This document shows, piece after piece, positions 1-63,609 of a stretch of DNA of 64,000 bases. The notes beneath the pieces were generated by a model, which saw nothing but the letters and a program-made list of their open reading frames with translations, had not been told where the DNA came from and searched no databases. Both the position numbers and the translations under genes were made by a program. The stretch is taken from the sequence record MW250786; one strand, given 5' to 3'. The stretch is from Escherichia phage UPEC06. Numbering within the stretch: the first letter of the stretch is position 1; the number at the start of each line of letters is the position of its first letter.

Positions 1-1
1 G

Positions 2-1747
2 GGCGATAAAGGCGACAAGGGTGATATCGGAACGGGTATCGTAGCTCGTGGCGTTGTTGCAACCCAAAGTGCACTTCCTTCCGGCGCAGCACCTGGTGAT
101 TTCTACGTTGTAGAAGATGAAGGTAACGGTTACGCTTGGGACGGTACAGCTTGGGTTTTAACTGGATTAGCTCGTGGACCTCAAGGTCTTAAAGGCGATA
201 CCGGAGAAACCGGAGCCAAAGGTGATAAGGGCGATAAAGGTGATGCAGGCGATGCACTTAAGCTGAGAGGCTTGGTTGCAACTTCCGCTGAACTGCCTTC
301 CACTGCTGAACTTGGTGACTTCTATGTCGCTGAAGACACCGGAATTGGTTACGCTTGGGATGGTGTTGCTTTCGTTTCTGCCGGAACCGTTAGAGGACCG
401 CAAGGTGAAGTAGGGCCGCAGGGTGAAGTTGGTCCTCAAGGACCTCAAGGCGAGAAGGGAGATGCTGGCGAGCAAGGTCCTCAAGGATTGGTCGGTGAAA
501 CAGGTGCAAAAGGTGATAAAGGAGATAAGGGTGACGTTGGCTCTGGTCTGATTCCGAGAGGAACTTTACCATCTCAAGCAGATCTTCCTCAAACTGGTGA
601 AGTTGGTGACTTCTACGTAGCTAACGATACTGGTATTGGCTATGCTTTTGATGGAACTGCATTCGTAGAAGCTGGAGTTGCCCGTGGTCCACAGGGTGAA
701 CAAGGACCCCAGGGTGAACAGGGACCACAAGGACTTAAAGGTGATACTGGTGAAACAGGTGCTCAGGGACCTCAAGGTGTTCAAGGTGAGAAAGGTGATA
801 CCGGAGAACGTGGAGAGGTAGGTCCGCAAGGTGATCAGGGTCCGCAAGGTGAGCAAGGTCCTCAGGGTGATATCGGACCAGGTGTAGAGATCATTGGACG
901 ATTTGATACCTCTGATGAATTACCTTCCACGGGTACTTTGGGTCAAGGTTACCTTATCCAAGGCGACTTCTGGGGTTGGACTGGTGCAGCATACGAGAAC
1001 TTGGGTCGTATTCAAGGTCCGGTTGGACCAGTAGGTCCTACGGGTGACCAAGGACCACAAGGCCCTGTCGGTAACAAAGGCGATAAAGGCGACCAAGGGA
1101 CCCTTTGGGTAGTTTTTGCTCGTGCACCAATGGTGAGCGATGGTCGTGTTAACGATCTGTACCTCAACTCTTCCACTCTGGAATATTACCGTAAAACTTC
1201 CGCAACGAACTGGGCACTGCTCGGATTCTTAGGTGGTGGTAACGTGTATGACGCACCAGGGGACGGAAAGCTGTATGTCCGTACTGATGGTGGTTGGGTT
1301 GAATTACCTACCGCAGAAGTTCTGGAAGCACCTCGTGATGGTAACCAATACGTCCGTAAAGACGGCGCTTGGACAACTGTTACAGTTCCTGTAACGGAAG
1401 CACCACTTGAAGGTGGATTCTACGTCCGTGAAAATGGTGCGTGGGTTAAACTGGATCAGTACGATTTACGTGTTGTTGCTTCAACTGGTGCAATTGATGC
1501 AAGCTCTGGTAATGCTTGGACTTTAGATGGTACAACCAACAAGTCCTTGACTATCACCGGATTGCCAGCAGGAAGGGCTAAAACCATAGTTTTACGATTC
1601 ACTGGTAACGGTGGTCAGATTAACTGGGATAGCCAGATCGCTTGGTCTAACGGAACAGCACCGACCCTCGGAGCTACCCGCACTATCCTGACCCTGTTCT
1701 GGGATGGTGAATTCCTGACTGGTACTCAGGCAATGACTGTAGGTTAA
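2..1747 (+). CDS. collagen-like repeat fibre protein, 5' partial (reading frame open from window edge)
   Basis: Frame of the 272..1747 ORF stays open back to nt 2; G-X-Y triplet runs ([10 protein letters not shown]) alternate with 4 copies of a ~25-aa motif GDFYVxxDxGxGYAWDG; stop at 1745-1747. Confidence 0.75.
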
Positions 1748-1756
1748 TTTTTAAAT

Positions 1757-1778
1757 GGGGGCTTCGGCCCCCTCTTTT
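1757..1778 (+). terminator. intrinsic terminator (UUCG tetraloop hairpin + U-tract)
   Basis: GGGGGC-TTCG-GCCCCC followed by TCTTTT, directly after stop codon. Confidence 0.6.
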
Positions 1779-1793
1779 CAGAAAGGAGTTAAT

Positions 1794-2429
1794 ATGGTAA
1801 TCGATAAGATTTATGGCTGGACACCTATGATCCGTATGTCTGACATGCGATATCCGGTATACCTGGCCGACTATCGTGCTGAGTATCCCAACGTATCTAT
1901 CGGCAGTTTTGTTTATGCTGTTGGTATGGCTGAGGTTGGATATCATGCGGTTTATGACGTAACTATGCCGCAAGGTGATGTTGTTACTGAAGGATCGCCG
2001 GAATTACGTGAAGATGGATTCTGGTACAGAACTTGGAATGTTAGAGACTTCACCGAACAAGAGATCGCTGATAACCTTGCTCGTGAAAAAGAGCAGCGTA
2101 TCAATGAGGCTCGGATGACTCTTGATAATGAGAGATCCGAAGGGGTTGTTGTAGCCAGCAAACGATATCAGTCAGACGCTCAAGCTTTTGCTTATTATAG
2201 TTCCATCTCTGCTGTTGCTAAAGACTCACCTGAAGAAGTTTTTCACTTAGTTACTTCTGATAATCAGGTAGAAGAATTCCTCGGTGATGAAGTTATTGCC
2301 CATATAAAAGAAATTCAAAAAGTTAACGCAAAAGTTTATGACGAGTTTGCGAAAATTGTAAAATCTATCCGTGAAGCAAGTTCTTCTGAAGAAATCCCTC
2401 AAGTACCTCCCTCTTTTCAAAATCTTTAA
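1794..2429 (+). CDS. hypothetical protein (possible fibre accessory protein)
   Basis: ATG at 1794 preceded by AAAGGAG; the track start at 1755 lies inside the terminator hairpin so the downstream start is preferred. Confidence 0.5.
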   Translation: MVIDKIYGWTPMIRMSDMRYPVYLADYRAEYPNVSIGSFVYAVGMAEVGYHAVYDVTMPQGDVVTEGSPELREDGFWYRTWNVRDFTEQEIADNLAREKEQRINEARMTLDNERSEGVVVASKRYQSDAQAFAYYSSISAVAKDSPEEVFHLVTSDNQVEEFLGDEVIAHIKEIQKVNAKVYDEFAKIVKSIREASSSEEIPQVPPSFQNL

Positions 2430-2459
2430 TAGTAAATAAACTTACTTAAGGAGCATTGC

Positions 2460-4058
2460 ATGAGTAAAAGTATTAGAGGAATGGCAGGTCATAATAACGG
2501 TGTTTTTTACGGAAATGCCCTTTATGACTTAGAAAGAAAGGTTAAAATGGATTTTAAAGATATCATGGAAAAAGGTGATTCCAGCCAAACACCTGGTCCA
2601 GAAGGTCCACAAGGACCAAAAGGGGATACTGGCCCTGCCGGACCTGTAGGTCCTGTAGGTCCGCAAGGACCACAGGGTGAGATCGGGCCTCAGGGTCCTA
2701 CTGGCCCTCAAGGACCTGTCGGAGCTACTGGTCCTACCGGACCTGAGGGTAGTGAAGGACCACAAGGCCCTCAAGGAGAGCAAGGTATAGCTGGTCCAGT
2801 AGGACCAAAAGGGGATACTGGTGAACAAGGTCCTCAGGGAGAGCAAGGACCCGCTGGTCTAAAAGGCGATACTGGGGATATTGGCCCTGCTGGACAAGAA
2901 GGGCCAATAGGTCCGACTGGCCCAACTGGCCCTGCCGGACCAAAGGGGGATGTTGGTCCTCAAGGACCTAAAGGCGAAACTGGTGAGCAGGGACCTATTG
3001 GACCACAAGGCCCACAAGGGGATGTTGGTCCTGTAGGTCCAGCAGGGCTTACTTTCCGAGGTTTTTATGATCCTTTAGTTGAATACTCTCAGAACGATAC
3101 TGTATCTTACAACGGATCTACTTATTTTTCCTTAAGAACAAGTATAGGCGCTAGTCCAGACACATCACTTGAAGATTGGTCTTTATTGGCAGCAGAGGGA
3201 GCAAGAGGCCCACAAGGCCCAACTGGCCCTCAGGGACCTAAAGGCGACCAGGGTGAGATTGGTCCTGCCGGAGCTACCGGTCCTGAAGGTCCGACTGGCC
3301 CAACTGGCCCGACTGGACCCGCTGGACCGAAAGGGGATAAAGGAGATAAAGGAGAGGTTGGACCTCAAGGACCTAAAGGCGACCAAGGGGTTATGGGAGA
3401 ACAAGGACCGCAGGGTATCGCTGGAACTACTGGACCTGCTGGTCCACAAGGACCTAAAGGCGACAAAGGAGATGTTGGCCCTCAAGGTCCCGCTGGTCCA
3501 CAAGGTTTGGATGGTATCCAAGGCCCAGCGGGTCCCCAGGGGATTAGAGGAATACAAGGACCTAAAGGCGACACTGGTGAGCAGGGAGAGAAAGGGGATA
3601 AGGGTGACAAGGGTGAGAAAGGTGATGCAGGAATATCAAGAACATTCCTTAAGGTTAAAACATCATCTGTTGGCACCAATCACGCGATCAAAATGCCAGC
3701 ACCTCTTGATAACCTATCTATAGGCATAAGGCTTGATTCAGCGGTACGTTTTAGTATTAGGGGTTGGATTGATACAGATACGACAGCCAGAAATGTTAGG
3801 GGGGATATTGAAGGCTTCAATAACTCTGAAAATTACTTCAATACAACGGTAAGACAATTGATATCTTCATCAACTGCAACTGGCACAACCCTTGTAGCCG
3901 ATATCAGCGAATTCCAAAGAATTAGGCCATATACATTTAGCTTCTTTGAAACAACAACAGAGACAATGTGGAGAGTAACTATAACTCTCTTCACGTCAGG
4001 GTATGTAGTAACTGACAATCAATGGCTATGTATAGAAGCTGTTAGACTTGATGCGTAA
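2460..4058 (+). CDS. collagen-like triple-helix repeat protein with C-terminal globular domain
   Basis: Two long G-X-Y runs ([14 protein letters not shown]...) separated by a non-collagen segment; AAGGAG upstream. Confidence 0.75.
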
Positions 4059-4113
4059 AATAACTGACGAAGGGACTCGCCTACTGATTTGTTCTTTCCT
4101 TTAATAATAGCAA

Positions 4114-19540: not shown

Positions 19541-19550
19541 CCTTAGATGA

Positions 19551-19568
19551 GTCGGGCTTCGGCCCGAC
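19551..19568 (+). other. stable UUCG hairpin without U-tract
   Basis: GTCGGGC-TTCG-GCCCGAC, lies in the 5' end of the track ORF 19547..19912. Confidence 0.4.
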
Positions 19569-19579
19569 TATGGAGACTT

Positions 19580-19912
19580 ATGATTGTTGATATAATGGCA
19601 GTTCTTAAAGCACTTTGGGGTCTTTTAACATTTATTTTGCTGGGTGCACTAAAGATCTTTTACACCGACTTTAAAAAATTAGAGTCACGTCAAAGCGAGC
19701 TTGAAAAAGATGTTCTTCGTTTGAAGGAATCTGCGGTTACTAAGGATAGTATCGATGCCATTCTTGACCGTAAGATAAAACATATCACTGATACGATCCA
19801 GGATATTAGGACCGATATCACAGATATGCGAAAGGAAGCAAAAGAAGAAAACCACGCTCTACAGAAGGATATTCGAGAATTACTAAACAAAATTATTGAG
19901 AACCGCAAATGA
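19580..19912 (+). CDS. small membrane/coiled-coil protein
   Basis: Hydrophobic N-terminal segment then charged helical region; start uncertain (19547, 19580 or 19595). Confidence 0.4.
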   Translation: MIVDIMAVLKALWGLLTFILLGALKIFYTDFKKLESRQSELEKDVLRLKESAVTKDSIDAILDRKIKHITDTIQDIRTDITDMRKEAKEENHALQKDIRELLNKIIENRK

Positions 19913-20367
19913 TTACAGCCATAATATATGGCATTTGTTTCGTAATCCTTGCTACTCGAAAAGAGAGTGGAACAAAGATAATGGCTGGGCTTTGCCTAGC
20001 CTATCTCGTATTGGAGAACCTGATCCTTTGGTTCTTCTCTACGCAACAATATTTCGACATCACTCTTTATTTTAATGTTCTCTGGACATTGGATTCGATA
20101 CTGCTTTTCACTATGGGTTGTACAGTGAAAGGATTACGACAAAAACTTATCGTATGCCTAAGTATTCCGTTCATGCTTATTCAAGTGTTTGCAATCCAAT
20201 ATCCAGAATTGTTCCCCTTATGGGTTTACGAATTCGCTCTTAGAGACGCTCACAAATATTTCATAGAAACCTTTGTGTTCGTTTATTCTTGGAAGGATAA
20301 TACCGTACCGGAATGGATAAGGACAGCAGTGGTGATATTTCTGGTGCTCATTGCCCATATGGTATGA
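19909..20367 (+). CDS. multi-pass membrane protein
   Basis: Several hydrophobic segments; ATGA overlap with upstream ORF. Confidence 0.45.
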   Translation: MITAIIYGICFVILATRKESGTKIMAGLCLAYLVLENLILWFFSTQQYFDITLYFNVLWTLDSILLFTMGCTVKGLRQKLIVCLSIPFMLIQVFAIQYPELFPLWVYEFALRDAHKYFIETFVFVYSWKDNTVPEWIRTAVVIFLVLIAHMV

Positions 20368-26859: not shown

Positions 26860-26913
26860 CTTCTTTCCTCTGTTGTTTAAGTGGGGCCATTATGCCCCAA
26901 GTAGTACTTTCTG

Positions 26914-41477: not shown

Positions 41478-42602
41478 TCAGAAAGGCGCGTCATCGTCCC
41501 AATCATCCGGCTCTGTGTCCGGCACATCAGGAATATCACCTGCGGATTCAACGATACTTTGTTGCTCCCATGTAGGTTCTTCTGAAGGTTGTTCCATTTC
41601 TTCCATAACCTTCTTGATCTCTTCCTCTTGCTCACGCAGGAAGTTATCATCCGGCTCAGGAATATCTTCCTCTTTAATATCTGAACGAGTGAGATCACTG
41701 TTTTGTTCAGACAGAGGTTGAATCTCTGCTGCCTTAGGCTTGAAGTCTGGAGAACGATGATCATCTTCTGGATGAGCGGCATACCACTCACGAAGAGTTT
41801 CATAAGGACTCTCTAAGAAGCCCTCTGGCGGTTCCAGATAATCACCCGTGTCAATGTCATAGAACACAGGGAATTTACCAGCACGACCGTGTTTACGGTC
41901 ATCCAGAATAACAAAGTAAGAAGTGTTACGTTGTTTCATCGGGAGTTCTGGATCTTTGTTACGTTCAATACCCCACATATAATAAGTGTTTCGCATCATT
42001 GCACGACTGCCAGCAAACTGCGCTGACTGGACTTGACCACCAAATTCATGAGGCTTGCCAGATTCAGGCTTATTAAGGTGACAGAAGCAATAATAAGTAA
42101 AGCCAAGTTCTTTTGCCAGCTTAGAGATCTCATCCGAGAATCGTTCCAGTTCCTGGTTAGCTTCGGAAGCACTCATACCTTGCACAAGACGAGTGATCGG
42201 GTCAATAAAGATATCTTCACAACCTTCTACAATCACTGCGTGACGGATAGCACCTTTCAGTTCATCCCATACTGCACGACCATAGTTGTTATAATAGATG
42301 ACACTATCACCAACCTCATCTGTAGCTTTGATCAGTTCTTCTTGCTTAAAGTAGCCACGTTGCCCTTCAAATACTTCATTACCCCAAATGTCACGGAAAG
42401 TTCCATCTTCTTGAGGAATCATTACCTTTTCTGCGTTAACAAAGTCTTTATGATAACGCTTACCTGCGATCTTTTTACAGGTAATTTCGTTCTCTTCTTC
42501 AAACTTAAACACCGCAGCTTTTGACTTCTCAATACCCGTGATGTGTTCAACCATTTGGTTAAGAAGTTCAGACTTGCCCATTTTCACCGTTATGTTCAGC
42601 AA
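41478..42602 (-). CDS. T7 gp4-like (DnaB-family) helicase, C-terminal part beginning inside Walker A (putative exon 2)
   Basis: Begins ...VKMGKSELL; CFCHLNKPESGKPHEFGG resembles the T7 gp4 helicase motif as recalled; acidic tail ending DDWDDDAPF. Confidence 0.7.
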   Translation of the reverse strand: MLNITVKMGKSELLNQMVEHITGIEKSKAAVFKFEEENEITCKKIAGKRYHKDFVNAEKVMIPQEDGTFRDIWGNEVFEGQRGYFKQEELIKATDEVGDSVIYYNNYGRAVWDELKGAIRHAVIVEGCEDIFIDPITRLVQGMSASEANQELERFSDEISKLAKELGFTYYCFCHLNKPESGKPHEFGGQVQSAQFAGSRAMMRNTYYMWGIERNKDPELPMKQRNTSYFVILDDRKHGRAGKFPVFYDIDTGDYLEPPEGFLESPYETLREWYAAHPEDDHRSPDFKPKAAEIQPLSEQNSDLTRSDIKEEDIPEPDDNFLREQEEEIKKVMEEMEQPSEEPTWEQQSIVESAGDIPDVPDTEPDDWDDDAPF

Positions 42603-43340
42603 GGTTCGCTACTCCTTGCCCGTTCTCTAAGAACTGCTACATGTCCCCATGCAGACCAGACTATATCTTCAACCCGTAAAACAGGTGCTATGCACTTCGA
42701 GCCGCTTGGCCCTACTCTACTCGGTTCAAGAGCTTTGCTCTTGCCTTTCGATAGTCGTTGCTCCTTCCTCTCAACCGCTTTGTAATCTCTCGAACTGTAT
42801 CGCGATGAATACCAAAATATTGTGCAATTTCTTTCTGAAGCATGGTTGTTTTAATGACCATATCATAAACTTCTTTTTCGAAATCATCATCGAATCGGTT
42901 TGGGTTTCTTCTTCCCGCTTTCCAACCGTGATCAACATTTTGCTTTGTAGTCATCCATTCTAGATTACTATCTGCGTTATTTTTCCTGTCTCTATCTTTA
43001 TGATTAACGACAGGTAGATTATAAGGATTTTCTACATAATGTTCAGCCACAAGTTGATGTATAAATCTCCTAGTGACCTTACCATTCTTACTTAATGAAA
43101 CTCTTAGATACCCTGCACTATTCGTGTCTGGCTTTAGTTTCTTAAGTTTTCGGTACACATCTCCGCGTCTGGTAATTATGTATTGTTCAAAACCCTTTAT
43201 TCTTTTCATTTCAACCTCCCTTTTAATGATAACAAAGAGGTTGAGAGGCTTGGATCAGGATTATCTGTTCTAGACTTCCCCTGAATTCACATAGTATTTA
43301 GTCGAGGCATTACTGCCAAGGCTGGCTAGACTTAATGTTT
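42585..43340 (-). mobile_element. putative group I intron carrying an HNH homing endonuclease ORF
   Basis: ~756 nt between Walker A halves; R-like CAACGACTAT (plus 42751-42760) and S-like AAGATATAGTC (plus 42659-42669) on the - strand; U before proposed 5' splice site and G before 3' splice site; boundaries +/- 3 nt. Confidence 0.6.
42712..43209 (-). CDS. HNH homing endonuclease
   Basis: GYLRVSL...HQLVAEHYVENP...VVNHKDRDRKNNADSNLEW motif set. Confidence 0.8.
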   Translation of the reverse strand: MKRIKGFEQYIITRRGDVYRKLKKLKPDTNSAGYLRVSLSKNGKVTRRFIHQLVAEHYVENPYNLPVVNHKDRDRKNNADSNLEWMTTKQNVDHGWKAGRRNPNRFDDDFEKEVYDMVIKTTMLQKEIAQYFGIHRDTVREITKRLRGRSNDYRKARAKLLNRVE

Positions 43341-44276
43341 ACCAGCACCGATGAAGTAACCTTCACCTGGACGACGACCCAAGGTAAGCTTGGTCATGGT
43401 GGGCCAAGGGAACTTCTTGCCGAGTTTAGGGATCTCATGTGCCTTTTCGCGGAACTGTGAATAAGTCGAGAAACCATCAGGCACATATTCTTTTGGCTTC
43501 ATTGCAGCCCAAAACAACTGATCAGAAAGACCTTTGTTATACATATCGCAAGGGTCCATATCTTCTGGAATATCCACGACCTTCATTTGTGGAATTACAG
43601 AGTATACCGCTGCAACTGCATCTTTACCTTTCATGATCCCTTTGGCCTTCTCTGCTTCTGTCGCACGGTCAGCATCGAAAGCTACGATAATCTCTTCAAA
43701 CTTACTCAGAAGCTTATAGTTATTCTTCTGTGATAAGTTTTGCACGGCATTTGATGTACCGTTAGAGATAGATACAACTGTGAAGTTTGGTTTACGGGTG
43801 GAACCATCCTTCGGTTTGTACTTCTCTGTCAATACCTGCCACAAGATTGCAGCATCGTATTCACCTTCAGTGATAAAGATCATACGTTTGGAAGACTTAT
43901 TTGCACCTTCCAGCCCAAACATATCACAAGCCACAGATTGGAAACCAATAGTTGTAAAGTGACCTTTCTGTTGCTTAGGGATCGTAAGATCACGCTTCTT
44001 AAAACCTACAACCTTACCTTCCAATGTGTACGGAAAATAATGCGCCTCTGGTGTCATACCGTCTTTAGCTGACAACTTGGTACGAATACCAAATCGTTTA
44101 GCTGTCTTTTCGTCGATACCACGCTCAGGGATACTTTTACACGGATAAGTCAATACGTCTTCAACTGTTTCTTCCACACGAGACACACCACCACCATAAT
44201 TACGTGCTACTGAAGCTTTAGGATTTTTATGTCCAAACTTATAACCGCCAAACAGACTTTCGCCAATAGTGCTCAT
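43332..44276 (-). CDS. DNA primase (TOPRIM) fused to N-terminal start of helicase domain (putative exon 1 ends ~43341)
   Basis: TOPRIM motifs IFITEGEYDA and FDADRA; C-terminus TLGRRPGEGYFIGAG is the first half of a Walker A segment, then KH-stop. Confidence 0.7.
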   Translation of the reverse strand: MSTIGESLFGGYKFGHKNPKASVARNYGGGVSRVEETVEDVLTYPCKSIPERGIDEKTAKRFGIRTKLSAKDGMTPEAHYFPYTLEGKVVGFKKRDLTIPKQQKGHFTTIGFQSVACDMFGLEGANKSSKRMIFITEGEYDAAILWQVLTEKYKPKDGSTRKPNFTVVSISNGTSNAVQNLSQKNNYKLLSKFEEIIVAFDADRATEAEKAKGIMKGKDAVAAVYSVIPQMKVVDIPEDMDPCDMYNKGLSDQLFWAAMKPKEYVPDGFSTYSQFREKAHEIPKLGKKFPWPTMTKLTLGRRPGEGYFIGAGKH

Positions 44277-45610: not shown

Positions 45611-46969
45611 TTATTGATCCTTGAAGATACTGGGGAACTTCTCATGATAGAAGTTTACAACATCTTGGTCAACAATGATATCTTTTACTCGTAAGCGTTT
45701 CAAAAGGCGAAGACCTTCTACACTCGTGGCACGGGAGAGCATAACATATGCTTGACCAGGTGTGAAAGTACCAAAGCCGAGATCGATGTTTACCTTACCT
45801 AAAGTTAAACCTTGTGCCTTGTGACCAGTGATCGCATAGCCCAACTTGAATGGGTATTGAATGTATTCACCAATAGATTTATCAACAAGAACAGTCTTTT
45901 CAACCATCTTCTTGATCATCTTTTTAGTCCCGTCCGGCATATCAACCTCTTCCTCTTCAAGCATCATCTTTTTCTCAGGTACTTGAGCAACGTTGTTCCA
46001 TGTTGCAGGGCCAATTGGGACCATTTTACCATCAATATCTACAACAACGAAGGTTTTTGCGATACGACGAACAATACCAACTGTACCATTGACATAATCA
46101 GGGACTTTCTTCTTCTGATCATTATCGTTAACGACAATCATCACTTTAAGACCTTCCTTAAGGAAAAGTTTTTCATTGACTGGACGTTCAACAAATTCAC
46201 CAGTAATACGAGCATTGAACTCATGCTGTTCAGCATTAATCTTTGCATATTCTTTGTTGTTGATCTCTTCTGCCAGCTTGTTCGTGGTAGTTAAAGTTAC
46301 TGCCCCGTCAAGTGGACGACCAAAGCAACGCTGGTTAAAGAAGTTAACGGCATCAGGGATGTTTTTCCCGATACGAATATTGTTCAGGTGTTCTGCAAAC
46401 ACTGGATCACTTTGGCGATGAACTTTAGGGAGATAAGCATAGGTCAGATTCAAAGATTCCCAAGTTTCGCACCCAAAAGGAATTTCTTTCCCGTGCAGTT
46501 CACGGAACAAAGGAACCTCTTCTTTCTTAAGTACAGGCTTGATCTGGAAACCGTCACCAAACATGATGATCTGGAGTCCACCAAAAGGCTTATCGGATTT
46601 ACGATGGTGGCGAAGTTTCATATCGATTTCTTTCAGTTTGTCACTTCGAGTCATGCCGATCTCATCAAACACGATACCATCGAGTGCATCAGATGCCATA
46701 AGCATAGCTGCCTTTTTAGATTTTGCCTTATAATCCTCAGATGTTGTAACCCCAAATGTCAAACCAAAGGCTTTGTGGGTGGTAACACCACGAATGTTTA
46801 ATGATGCTACACCTGTTGGTCCAACGAACAAGAAACTATCGGCAAAGAAATCACGAAGTGCTGCGATCATCATACTTTTGCCACTACCACCAGGTCCAGT
46901 GATAAAAACGTTTTCACCATTCATGATTGCTTGCATCGCTGCTTCGTTACCGATCACTGTCTTAGTCAT
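45611..46969 (-). CDS. Dda/RecD-like SF1 DNA helicase
   Basis: Walker A GPGGSGKS, Walker B IVFDEIGM, C-terminal TGHKAQGLT. Confidence 0.8.
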   Translation of the reverse strand: MTKTVIGNEAAMQAIMNGENVFITGPGGSGKSMMIAALRDFFADSFLFVGPTGVASLNIRGVTTHKAFGLTFGVTTSEDYKAKSKKAAMLMASDALDGIVFDEIGMTRSDKLKEIDMKLRHHRKSDKPFGGLQIIMFGDGFQIKPVLKKEEVPLFRELHGKEIPFGCETWESLNLTYAYLPKVHRQSDPVFAEHLNNIRIGKNIPDAVNFFNQRCFGRPLDGAVTLTTTNKLAEEINNKEYAKINAEQHEFNARITGEFVERPVNEKLFLKEGLKVMIVVNDNDQKKKVPDYVNGTVGIVRRIAKTFVVVDIDGKMVPIGPATWNNVAQVPEKKMMLEEEEVDMPDGTKKMIKKMVEKTVLVDKSIGEYIQYPFKLGYAITGHKAQGLTLGKVNIDLGFGTFTPGQAYVMLSRATSVEGLRLLKRLRVKDIIVDQDVVNFYHEKFPSIFKDQ

Positions 46970-47159
46970 TATTTAGTTCCTCATATTCATATGGGTAGAG
47001 TAGATATCCTTTGTTGTCTTTTAGTGCTACAGCTATAACACTCTCAAGGTAAAAATCATCGTCATAGTGCATTTCTTCAATTACAAGAATATCACCTTTC
47101 TTTGGATGATCATCGCGATCACTGAAATCATTTAGTAGTTTTATTTTTACGTTTTTCAT
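46962..47159 (-). CDS. hypothetical small protein
   Basis: ORF in operon. Confidence 0.35.
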   Translation of the reverse strand: MKNVKIKLLNDFSDRDDHPKKGDILVIEEMHYDDDFYLESVIAVALKDNKGYLLYPYEYEELNND

Positions 47160-47340
47160 ATAACATCTCCGCTGCTACAAGGGATAAGATCATTGCCATA
47201 TACATTACAATGGAAGTCACACTGATCTGAATGAAAACCTCATCGGTTACATGATCAAAGTAAGCATTCTTTACATATCTTACGCCCACGAGCCAAAATA
47301 CCATTACTACAGCAAATGTCAGTATCATACGTTTTATCAT
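47128..47340 (-). CDS. small two-TM membrane protein (holin-like candidate)
   Basis: Two hydrophobic segments, 70 aa, directly after hydrolase gene. Confidence 0.4.
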   Translation of the reverse strand: MIKRMILTFAVVMVFWLVGVRYVKNAYFDHVTDEVFIQISVTSIVMYMAMILSLVAAEMLYEKRKNKTTK

Positions 47341-47852
47341 TTCTTTTTCTCCTCTTTATCTTTATAAAAGATGTGATTTTCTATGGTAACTGTTCTTTTC
47401 AGAAGTTTACGCCACACAGGCTTAACCTTCTTAGTGTGATAATACAAAGATCCATGCGTTGGGTCAAACCTTTTATACAAAACCTCATTATTTTTTATCT
47501 TATGTACAAACTTAGAGATGCTGAGCGCACCCTCCCAGGAGTCTTTATCTGTTATGCTATAAGAGGATTTAGTTAATGTCCATGAAAACTGAGAGGCTTG
47601 ATACACAACTCCTTTCATTGTTCTCGGGAATTTATCATTTTTCATCCGATTCATTGTAACGAAGGCAACAGCCATTTGACCATTTATCGTCTCGCCTCGG
47701 GACTCCATATAGACATTACAGGCTAAGGCATTTACAGAATTATCCTTTTTCGTACATTTATGAATAACCTTCTGTGCTCTCTCTTTGGCATAAGTGACGC
47801 CTGGTGCCAGAGACAGAGTACAAATCAAACCACATAAAACTAATTTTTTCAT
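47337..47852 (-). CDS. secreted SleB-like cell-wall hydrolase
   Basis: Signal peptide; NVYMESRGE...GQMAVAFVTMNR resembles the SleB/Hydrolase_2 family signature. Confidence 0.6.
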   Translation of the reverse strand: MKKLVLCGLICTLSLAPGVTYAKERAQKVIHKCTKKDNSVNALACNVYMESRGETINGQMAVAFVTMNRMKNDKFPRTMKGVVYQASQFSWTLTKSSYSITDKDSWEGALSISKFVHKIKNNEVLYKRFDPTHGSLYYHTKKVKPVWRKLLKRTVTIENHIFYKDKEEKKK

Positions 47853-47898
47853 TTTCCCTCCAATTGAGGACCCAGCTTATCACTGGGTCACCCTCTTG

Positions 47899-48285
47899 TC
47901 AACTACCTTCGATATGCTTCTGAATTTGATCAGCAATACCTTTCCACAAACCATTAAGGAAAGGGTTGCTTGTGATGACTTCGCCCAACCAGGGGCCATA
48001 CAGGCGGTATACGTAGTCATCTGTGATCGCATAGATACTTCCATCACGTACAGCAAGACCACGTACAAGGGAGGTTGTTACACGACGACCTGCAAACCCC
48101 GTCTTTTGGTATTCCAGTTCAGAATGTTCAATATAACCTACCAGACTTACCAGATTTTGAGTTCCATCAATTTCAAACCCGCATTTCTTTTCGAGGTCTT
48201 CTGAAATCGTACTAACCCCTTCCAGTGCAAAGTTACCACCGAATTTTAGGCCATACTTAGCTGCCAGTTTATCGTGTGCTGTCAT
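47899..48285 (-). CDS. hypothetical protein
   Basis: ORF in operon. Confidence 0.4.
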   Translation of the reverse strand: MTAHDKLAAKYGLKFGGNFALEGVSTISEDLEKKCGFEIDGTQNLVSLVGYIEHSELEYQKTGFAGRRVTTSLVRGLAVRDGSIYAITDDYVYRLYGPWLGEVITSNPFLNGLWKGIADQIQKHIEGS

Positions 48286-52466: not shown

Positions 52467-52521
52467 TTATTTCCCCTTGTTTGTTTTGATAGGGTCATAT
52501 TACATGACCCTTGATATGGTG

Positions 52522-60370: not shown

Positions 60371-60445
60371 TCACAAGAAGGGGTTGACGAGTGTCGCCCC
60401 TTGATTTAAACTTCAGTTATCGAAAGAAAGAGAGGAATCTAGATA

Positions 60446-63246: not shown

Positions 63247-63609
63247 AAATTTCAGTTTCATTTCAAAATTGAAAAATTTTTTATATGCACAAAAATATAG
63301 GGCTTGTCAAGGTCTTTGATAAGAAATTTTCAGGAGGTGAGAATTATTCTCATTTGCAGAATAACGGGCAGGGGTGGTGATTGCTTCGTGAAACCGTCCT
63401 CATCACCATGAATATATAATAGCACCGTTTTTGATTAGAAAGCAACAACATTTTAAAAATATTTTTCGGTAAATTTTGGGCGAGCTACCGGCGATCCACC
63501 TTACAACCTGGCGGCGATGCCTGGTATGTTAGCCCCGCCTTTACGCCGTGGGGATGGCGATTGTTTTCCTATGTAAGCATTATGGCCCCTGGCGGGGCCG
63601 TTGTCAACA

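Follow-up and report, generated by a model that had tools for sequence, protein, structure and literature searches.

A predicted Sec-exported SleB-like hydrolase and its two-transmembrane-segment neighbour in Escherichia phage UPEC06, a possible arm of a dispersed lysis system

Does the leftward module of three small open reading frames (ORFs) in the early/replication region of Escherichia phage UPEC06 (MW250786) constitute the lysis cassette of this phage, or does its cell-wall hydrolase have another role? The stretch analysed (the window) was 64,000 nucleotides (nt) long, and the module, on its minus strand, encoded a SleB/CwlJ-family hydrolase, a protein with two transmembrane (TM) segments, and an acidic protein of 65 amino acids (aa), termed orf65 (Table 1). 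An original prediction, made from the letters alone, had given coordinates for the three ORFs that were all correct, and had suggested that they may be the lysis cassette. The hydrolase gene product is very likely an exported peptidoglycan hydrolase. The reading preferred for the module, tentatively and at a little short of even confidence, is that of a Sec-exported accessory second muralytic enzyme with a two-TM holin/pinholin-like trigger, in a dispersed lysis system together with an M15 peptidase and spanins. The module was already known, since the gene was classed under lysis in a 2024 genus paper (PMC11370258) and the idea of a SleB-like enzyme plus a class II holin was published for a sister genus in 2020 (PMC7344957). 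The feature is confirmed, and for this group of phages it is an ordinary one.

In megablast searches, the region was 89-95% identical in five ~140-kb E. coli myoviruses of the Vequintavirinae, vB_EcoM-LTH01 (LTH01), A5-4, A73, A7_1, and W70, the last four of which were described as the new genus Septuagintavirus in 2024 (PMC11370258). By nucleotide identity (~95% to LTH01) the window was assigned to a Septuagintavirus-type E. coli phage. It mapped to LTH01 from ~63.3 kb back through the record start to ~140.6 kb and contained tail and tail-fibre genes, genes for DNA polymerase, primase/helicase and helicase, and many small early-type genes; by the same mapping, the terminase and nucleotide-metabolism regions lay outside it. 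The module was situated in a leftward block, with many of the small early-type genes on one side and the genes for helicase, primase/helicase and DNA polymerase on the other. All three ORFs were intact and co-linear in the six genomes (the window and its five relatives), and the ratios of non-synonymous to synonymous polymorphism (pN/pS) were 0.047 for the hydrolase gene, 0.10-0.13 for the two-TM gene, and 0.12-0.15 for orf65, versus 1.9 and 1.1 in the shifted frames across the orf65 region. Thus, the three ORFs are genes under purifying selection and not chance ORFs, including the 65-aa ORF that the original prediction had listed after the two-TM gene. The start of the two-TM gene overlapped the hydrolase stop by 4 nt (ATGA), an arrangement predicting translational coupling of the hydrolase to a small N-in/C-in membrane protein, while orf65 shared 32 nt with the two-TM gene and 8 nt with the start of the helicase gene. 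Within the Vequintavirinae, the module has been conserved and passed on by vertical descent.

The hydrolase matched all 100 profile positions of Pfam Hydrolase_2 (PF07486), with 83.1 bits where the cut-off is 27 (E 2.3e-23), and also matched PHROG 938 "endolysin" (5.6e-27). By sequence it was also related to the SleB catalytic domains in the PDB (4F55, 2e-9; 4FET, 1e-8) and to no other solved structures. The SleB-family signature pointed out earlier was borne out by the above-threshold profile match and by the presence of both motifs quoted for it, NVYMESRGE and AVAFVTMNR (aa 61-69). An AlphaFold2 model built on 28 homologues had a predicted local distance difference test (pLDDT) score of 88 overall, exceeding 90 for residues 30-165 and low over the signal peptide, and a Foldseek search with this model against the PDB returned only 4F55 and 4FET (E 2e-6 to 3e-6, template modelling score 0.73-0.74, target-normalised). 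Residues E50, R69, Q85, F89, and H160 were invariant in the homologues (n = 28, identity down to 28%), and E50 aligned with the YGESRGE motif of SleB in 4F55/4FET. This residue is the first Glu of the YxE[SA]RGE motif, the catalytic residue of SleB according to the published structures.

Since the PDB entry title for the solved SleB gives the reaction as that of a lytic transglycosylase, the enzyme is probably, by analogy, a lytic transglycosylase, and the label "N-acetylmuramyl-L-alanine amidase" used in two phage genome papers is probably outdated. The catalytic domain, the fold, and the Glu motif YxE[SA]RGE are common to the phage hydrolase and the Bacillus SleB/CwlJ spore-cortex enzymes (4F55, 4FET), although identity is only ~28%. 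Pfam detected only Hydrolase_2 in the hydrolase and no N-terminal PG_binding_1 domain, residues 1-52 consisting of the signal peptide and a short linker, and no YpeB-like neighbour was seen among the window genes. The protein is therefore best classified, from its domain content, as a member of the SleB/CwlJ domain family and not as a SleB orthologue. Unlike its Bacillus counterparts, it has neither a YpeB nor a GerQ partner, its substrate cannot be the muramic-delta-lactam cortex, and it is predicted to be exported to a Gram-negative periplasm.

The N-terminus of the hydrolase read MKK, then LVLCGLICTLSLA, then PGVTYA↓KE (arrow, predicted cleavage site), so that 22 residues, MKKLVLCGLICTLSLAPGVTYA, would be removed ahead of KE. 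On rule-based reading of the sequence, the n-region was basic, the h-region comprised ~13 residues, Pro and Gly formed a break after it, and positions -3 and -1 were taken by small residues, a layout in line with the signal peptide noted in the original prediction and predicting a classical cleavable Sec signal peptide. The same n/h/c layout was kept in divergent homologues, with sites such as PVLA↓KD, PALA↓KE, SHA↓TY, and VAQA↓EA, and the design was conserved in the homologues from Septuagintavirus, Certrevirus, Seunavirus, Vequintavirus, Justusliebigvirus, and T5-like phages. The predicted mature protein would have ~149 aa (~17.5 kDa, pI 9.9). Cysteines C33 and C45 were conserved in the homologues from Vequintavirinae and phi92-like phages, with a different Cys pair in other lineages, and these pairs would fit oxidative folding of the hydrolase in the periplasm. 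A lipoprotein was ruled out, as LVLC and GLIC are unfit as a lipobox, which needs Gly, Ala, or Ser at -1.

The two-TM protein had hydrophobic segments at aa ~4-20 and ~39-57, separated by an 18-residue loop, and basic termini (MIKRM, with Met1 and Met5, at the N-terminus; EKRKNKTTK at the C-terminus), from which an N-in/C-in topology was deduced by the positive-inside rule. It thus has the size and topology used to define class II holins and pinholins (~65-95 aa, two TM domains, N-in/C-in, charged C-terminus), and the holin-like character noted in the original prediction for the 70-aa protein following the hydrolase gene was borne out by these generic hallmarks; on these features, it is a class II holin-like candidate. 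The Met1/Met5 pair with Lys3 and Arg4 was conserved in the six genomes, and a MIRFM start was observed in the metagenomic relative L017; no dual start occurred in CB7_82 or in the corresponding proteins of metagenomic relative L019 and of EC152, and the Shine-Dalgarno sequence of the window gene was positioned for Met1 only. Positional analogues of 57-73 aa with two TM segments followed the hydrolase gene in Certrevirus CB7, Seunavirus EC152, and the metagenomic relatives L017, L019, and L020, whose hydrolases were 49-62% identical to that of the window. These analogues were only weakly related to each other, the window protein being linked to them essentially by architecture alone.

The closest published counterpart of the module is CB7_83/CB7_82 of Pectobacterium phage vB_PatM_CB7 (Certrevirus), in which the same order is found: upstream gene, SleB-like gene, two-TM gene overlapping by 4 nt, small ORF, and helicase gene (PMC7344957). 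From the hydrolase gene to the helicase gene, this order also recurred in metagenomic relatives. The CB7_83 hydrolase has a signal peptide and is 56% identical to that of the window. CB7_82 (~65-70 aa) shares architecture with the window protein but essentially no sequence (BLASTP E 1.2 between the window protein and the CB7-like L017 protein), and it has neither a basic C-terminus nor a start of the Met1/Met5 kind; the small ORF that follows in CB7 is unrelated to orf65, and the CB7 helicase has 823 aa versus 452 aa in the window. In 2020, the CB7 authors proposed a secreted SleB-like hydrolase with a class II holin, spanins at terL, and a T5-like M15 peptidase elsewhere, and stated, as data not shown, that the CB7 homologue was toxic when expressed in E. 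coli (PMC7344957). The genes of the Septuagintavirus relatives (A5-4_27, W70_56, A73_73, A7_1_184, and LTH01 WWT49216) are the same gene as that of the window, the hydrolase being 100% identical in A5-4 and LTH01 and ~92-95% identical in the others. The paper on that genus calls the enzyme an amidase, without discussion of a signal peptide, a two-TM neighbour or a holin (PMC11370258), and in the GenBank records the genes are labelled hypothetical and orf65 is omitted.

No other endolysin candidate had been recognised in the window, a fair statement, but the genome type does hold one outside it. In LTH01, a 127-aa M15 peptidase (Peptidase_M15_4) was encoded at 100104-100487, between the glutaredoxin gene and phoH, with strong similarity to solved L-Ala-D-Glu endopeptidases (23ri, 5.7e-48; 8q2g, 2.6e-45; ChiX, 3.9e-41; T5 endolysin 2mxz, 1.5e-19). 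A spanin pair (Rz/Rz1-like; spanin PHROGs at 2.4e-14 and 2.5e-20) adjoined terL at 72459-73117, the first gene encoding a lipobox (LVGC) and the second an N-terminal TM domain. Both loci mapped outside the window. The Septuagintavirus paper gives each of its four genomes an M15C "Endolysin" as well as a "Cell wall hydrolase, SleB", these being the only two lysis genes in its ortholog table (PMC11370258). No holin was recognisable with PHROG and Pfam among small hydrophobic proteins beside the LTH01 M15 gene or elsewhere in LTH01, the membrane proteins of the window matched no family of holins or endolysins, and the small hydrophobic proteins of the window and of reassembled LTH01 gave only "unknown" or "membrane protein" assignments in PHROG and Pfam, plus the two spanins. 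Because these other small membrane proteins were unassigned too, the two-TM gene cannot be singled out by exclusion.

With regard to clustering, the holin-like two-TM gene was adjacent to the hydrolase gene, while in LTH01 the spanins were at terL and the M15 gene at another locus. The suggestion of a lysis cassette thus held for the combination of a signal-peptide SleB enzyme with a holin-like neighbour but not for completeness; conversely, a canonical cassette elsewhere in the genome, named in the original prediction as part of what would speak against it, was found only as a separate M15 endolysin and spanins, which were not clustered and had no holin beside them. Since these genes are dispersed outside the window, the module would be at most one arm of a dispersed lysis system and not a complete cassette. 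The CB7 authors described lysis genes as likewise dispersed in Certrevirus, rV5, and PVP-SE1 (PMC7344957). Two overlapping genes in the tail-fibre module of the window were also observed, at 19547-19912 (+), encoding 121 aa with an N-terminal TM domain and a coiled coil (weak Rz-like PHROG, E ~2e-3), and at 19909-20367 (+), encoding 152 aa with three TM domains (PHROG 7451, unknown). Their products are candidates for alternative late-expressed holin- or spanin-like proteins, and the pair may correspond to CB7_34/CB7_35, "putative membrane protein" genes among the CB7 tail-fibre genes; CB7_35 has been set opposite W70_108, a "virion structural protein", in Table S6.

In tblastn searches, a Hydrolase_2-type domain was found in 1,269 phage records. 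Every genus of the Vequintavirinae had kept the SleB-like gene, while its second hydrolase was not constant. The soluble endolysin co-occurring with it was an M15 enzyme in Septuagintavirus and in CB7 and phiTE, lysozyme-like in other Certrevirus, the experimentally characterised gp146 in PVP-SE1 (Seunavirus; PMC3352856), GH19 in vB_EcoM_LNA4, GH24 in Phapecoctavirus, and again M15 in T5-like phages, where it adjoins the holin and the SleB-domain gene is distant (PMC11180984). The SleB-like gene also tended to lie among early or DNA-metabolism genes, its neighbours being the helicase gene here and in CB7, rIIA/rIIB in Vequintavirus and Seunavirus, a recombination exonuclease gene in T5-like phages, and ligase and dCMP deaminase genes in Pakpunavirus. 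The SleB-like protein was absent from the virion mass-spectrometry lists of W70, CB7, PVP-SE1, and rV5. In Vibrio phage Vc1 (T1-like, 44 kb), the Hydrolase_2 gene adjoined a gene encoding a lipobox and a C-terminal TM segment, which in our reading looks like a u-spanin; by this adjacency, the family can apparently serve as a true endolysin. The annotated 97-aa "endolysin" of Vc1 (NC_047746; L014:2241-2848) starts downstream of the catalytic HHEARGE motif; its start codon thus appears to be misannotated, and the true ORF would begin earlier and overlap the lipobox/TM gene.

Upstream of the hydrolase gene, an element found by eye consisted of TTGACA (47902-47897), a 17-nt spacer, and TGnTAAGCT ending at 47874, an extended -10 with a weak hexamer. 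The hairpin GACCCAG-N7-CTGGGTC (47889-47869; 7 bp) overlapped the extended -10, and the 46-nt spacer region, with a predicted folding energy of -19.8 kcal/mol, was near-invariant in the six genomes while nearby synonymous sites varied by ~35%. These features are suggestive of a promoter, although a consensus scan left the element uncalled, its -10 hexamer matching at 3 of 6 positions. The same scan of 44-56 kb returned 48 promoter-like sites, shuffled sequence giving 35 ± 6, but fewer terminators than the shuffled sequence did, and was uninformative on timing. As the next recognisable stem-loop downstream occurred after the helicase gene, the promoter-like element suggests that the sleB-like, two-TM, orf65, and helicase genes may form one transcription unit, read by host RNA polymerase with early or middle expression. 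A literature search for temporal expression data on Vequintavirinae gave nothing usable.

Taken together, these data point to the following possible course of events. The pre-protein would be exported by Sec, its 22-residue signal peptide would be cut off, and the basic mature domain would fold in the periplasm, where a Cys33-Cys45 disulfide may form; it would then cleave N-acetylmuramic acid-N-acetylglucosamine (MurNAc-GlcNAc) bonds via Glu50, as a lytic transglycosylase in the manner of SleB. The two-TM protein would be a holin/pinholin-like trigger: by making the membrane potential collapse, it would set the exported enzyme to work. Such an accessory enzyme would be holin-independent, and the cytoplasmic M15 L-Ala-D-Glu endopeptidase and the Rz/Rz1-like spanins would complete the dispersed system. 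A role in lysis is favoured because the enzyme has an export signal, its gene is coupled to that of a partner whose position is conserved, sister genera have the gene linked to rII, the family appears to serve as an endolysin elsewhere, and the CB7 homologue was reported to be toxic, and further because no holin family was detected beside the M15 gene or elsewhere in LTH01. That the enzyme works in lysis with the two-TM protein as described comes close to an even call.

Several observations weigh against this reading. The two-TM protein had no match to a holin family in Pfam or PHROG, Pfam giving only sub-threshold noise, and a tblastn search of 50,697 phage records at E <= 1 found homologues in only the five Septuagintavirus genomes. 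The partner was missing from T5-like and phi92-like phages, from the metagenomic relative L018, and from Vequintavirus, in which the stop of the hydrolase gene is overlapped by rIIA. As ~10% of the window genes encode small membrane proteins, adjacency of the two-TM gene is weak evidence; a stronger argument is that its position has been kept while its sequence has been lost. In T5-like phages, it is the M15 gene that the holin gene adjoins, and no TM protein is encoded beside the SleB-like gene. A conventional soluble endolysin is present, so lysis need not depend on the SleB-like enzyme, whose gene lies in an early/replication block and is probably co-transcribed with the helicase gene. Moreover, once released from its signal peptide, the enzyme would be at large in the periplasm well ahead of lysis, with no known restraint on it.

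The location of the gene would also suit a role outside lysis, in which an exported enzyme made with the early/replication genes remodels or nicks the sacculus, be it for priming the wall for fast lysis, cell enlargement, interference with superinfecting phages, or altered envelope signalling, the two-TM protein being unrelated or a regulator/inhibitor. Such a role is conceivable but rather unlikely. The gene is embedded in early/DNA-metabolism blocks of unrelated large virulent phages, has the sigma-70-like TTGACA/extended -10 just upstream, and always stands alongside a different, interchangeable soluble endolysin (M15, GH19, GH24, or PVP-SE1gp146-type), as expected if the swapped gene is the endolysin. 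However, scattered positions and early expression are common for endolysin genes of large virulent phages too, the expression toxicity of the CB7 homologue and the holin-like neighbour suit lysis at least equally, and nothing positive was found for any of the specific alternatives. Put more broadly, and unlikely on present evidence, the protein would be a widely conserved early/mid periplasmic lytic transglycosylase of large virulent Gram-negative phages (Vequintavirinae, Stephanstirmvirinae, T5-like, and Pakpunavirus), not the usual endolysin and always accompanied by an interchangeable soluble one. Its job would then be sacculus pre-conditioning or remodelling, a holin-independent second lysis route, or interference with superinfection or defence, with the two-TM protein a membrane regulator in some genera.

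The converse, that the module is the principal endolysin-holin pair as first proposed and that the M15 peptidase has another role, is quite improbable, even though no muralytic gene except the SleB-like one has a holin-like gene beside it, and the SleB-like gene is present in all Vequintavirinae genera while the other hydrolase varies. Close homologues of the M15 protein include phage endolysins characterised in biochemistry and structure, M15 is the holin-linked enzyme in T5-like phages, PVP-SE1 of the same subfamily has the characterised soluble endolysin gp146 (PMC3352856), and the two-TM gene is missing from several lineages that keep the hydrolase. A signal-anchor-release (SAR) endolysin, for which the two-TM protein would be the pinholin after the example of phage 21, could be read from the Gly, Cys, Thr, and Ser in the N-terminal hydrophobic segment, the S21-like partner (70 aa, two TM domains, Met1/Met5 start), and a Pakpunavirus homologue with an uncleaved-looking N-terminal anchor. 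Yet a SAR domain is an uncleaved, weakly hydrophobic TM domain of ~20 residues rich in Gly/Ala/Ser/Thr, whereas the core here, ~13-16 residues, is too short for a membrane-spanning SAR helix and is followed by PG and the conserved AXA-type site T-Y-A↓K; the first TM segment of the partner is, in addition, strongly hydrophobic and not SAR-like. With a segment so short and a cleavage site following so clearly, the SAR endolysin was rejected as very improbable. Least probable, and barely so at all, is a virion-associated lysin for wall penetration at infection: lytic transglycosylases are common among virion enzymes, but carrying a Sec signal peptide does not go together with virion assembly in the cytoplasm, the gene is not part of the structural module, and the protein is missing from the four virion protein lists cited above.

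Among lysis systems of known design, phage 21 combines the S21 pinholin with the R21 SAR endolysin, and Lys44 of Oenococcus phage fOg44 is a Sec-exported endolysin. The preferred reading, an exported accessory enzyme with a two-TM trigger, resembles these in that a muralytic enzyme would be exported without holin-made holes and a small two-TM protein with dual Met and charged C-terminus could trigger lysis by depolarisation. It differs in that no sequence relationship is known, the export signal looks cleavable and not SAR, the enzyme gene precedes the TM gene, and the module lies in a replication operon, without adjacent spanins and with a second soluble endolysin present. T5-like phages (DaisyDussoix bas31_0078) also have an M15 L-Ala-D-Glu endopeptidase and a signal-peptide SleB-like protein from the early/replication region (PMC11180984). 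Papers noting two peptidoglycan hydrolases in many large lytic enterobacterial and Pseudomonas phages leave open which of them is used (e.g. PMC11180984).

Table 1. Position of the module, its parts and its flanking genes in the window
Feature	Position	Strand	Basis or remark
SleB/CwlJ-family hydrolase gene, 171 aa	47337..47852	minus	ORF list
Two-TM protein gene, 70 aa	47128..47340	minus	ORF list
orf65, gene for 65-aa acidic protein	46962..47159	minus	ORF list
PIF1/Dda-like DNA helicase gene, 452 aa, conserved downstream partner of the module	45611..46969	minus	Pfam PIF1 6e-22, PHROG 30356 5.5e-235
Conserved upstream gene, 128 aa	47899..48285	minus	PHROG 12555; syntenic with CB7_84
Predicted cleavable Sec signal peptide, codons 1-22	47787..47852	minus	Rule-based reading of sequence
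Catalytic motif NVYMESRGE, aa 46-54	47691..47717	minus	Glu50 codon at 47703-47705
Upstream control region (promoter-like element and hairpin)	47869..47902	minus	Sequence and fold

The protein predicted for orf65 was acidic (pI 4.5) and soluble, without a TM segment or any feature linked to lysis. It matched PHROG 14198 (6e-9), a 57-aa profile whose "exonuclease" label is not credible as the function of orf65. The gene was unannotated in all five GenBank relatives, and no similarity was observed between its product and that of CB7_81, which are both small downstream ORFs. The PIF1/Dda-like helicase gene followed the module in CB7 and in the metagenomic relatives too, with a product of 451-454 aa in the latter, similar to that in the window, and of 823 aa in CB7 (L009:24780-27251). 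As PHROG 30356 was aligned to the window helicase over profile positions 1-385 of 823 only, the CB7 helicase appears to carry an extra C-terminal half or a fusion. In EC152 (Seunavirus; L005:2093-2452), the gene upstream of the SleB-like gene encoded 119 aa with repetitive G-N/D-[IV] turns, bactofilin- or beta-helix-like, unrelated to the conserved 128-aa upstream gene product of Septuagintavirus and Certrevirus.

GC-rich hairpins lying in or beside sigma-70-like elements or minus-strand intergenic spacers were observed, apart from that at 47869-47902, at 63249-63290, 60380-60410, 52475-52505, and 26870-26900; one promoter-like example was TTGACA-ACGGCCCCGCCAGGGGC-CATAAT at 63251, and others were in minus-strand spacers without a following T-run. 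Such hairpins may serve this phage as a specific signal for regulation or processing. Relative to LTH01, the window contained an insertion of 753 bp (42589-43341) by which the primase/helicase gene was divided in two, the Toprim part lying at 43332-44276 and the DnaB-like part at 41478-42602; the insertion carried a 165-aa HNH_3 endonuclease ORF (42712-43209, minus) flanked by non-coding stretches of ~110-120 nt; A7_1 had a different insertion in the same gene. No Rfam group I or II intron matched at the insertion, so that an intron of an undescribed kind is one possibility and a free-standing homing endonuclease the other. An Rfam scan of the whole window gave no matches, the hairpins and the HNH insertion flanks fitting no described RNA family.

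The window ran without a break across the start and end of the LTH01 record at 63485/63486; the linear GenBank ends of LTH01 are therefore arbitrary (circular permutation or assembly break), with no physical terminus at this position. In the tail-fibre region, no match to LTH01 was found at 2096-2603 and 2736-4111, positions 1-2095 were 85% identical, and the rest of the window was ~95-97% identical, so that the region 1-4111 looks like a swapped receptor-binding module.

To the published picture of the SleB-like gene, this analysis adds confirmation of the fold and the catalytic residue, an argument for a cleavable signal peptide over SAR, a two-TM partner that is positionally conserved, divergent in sequence, and dispensable in several lineages, an unannotated but selected orf65, and a pattern of co-occurrence with a second endolysin across families. 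For annotation, the enzyme should be given as a probable lytic transglycosylase and not an amidase, a signal peptide is predicted to be present, and orf65 is missing from GenBank. If the SleB-like enzyme and its two-TM partner do provide a second, holin-independent lysis route, or a non-lytic periplasmic function, this would add to how non-model virulent phages control the envelope, and enzybiotic work could gain a muralytic enzyme that is exported by nature and active on Gram-negative bacteria.

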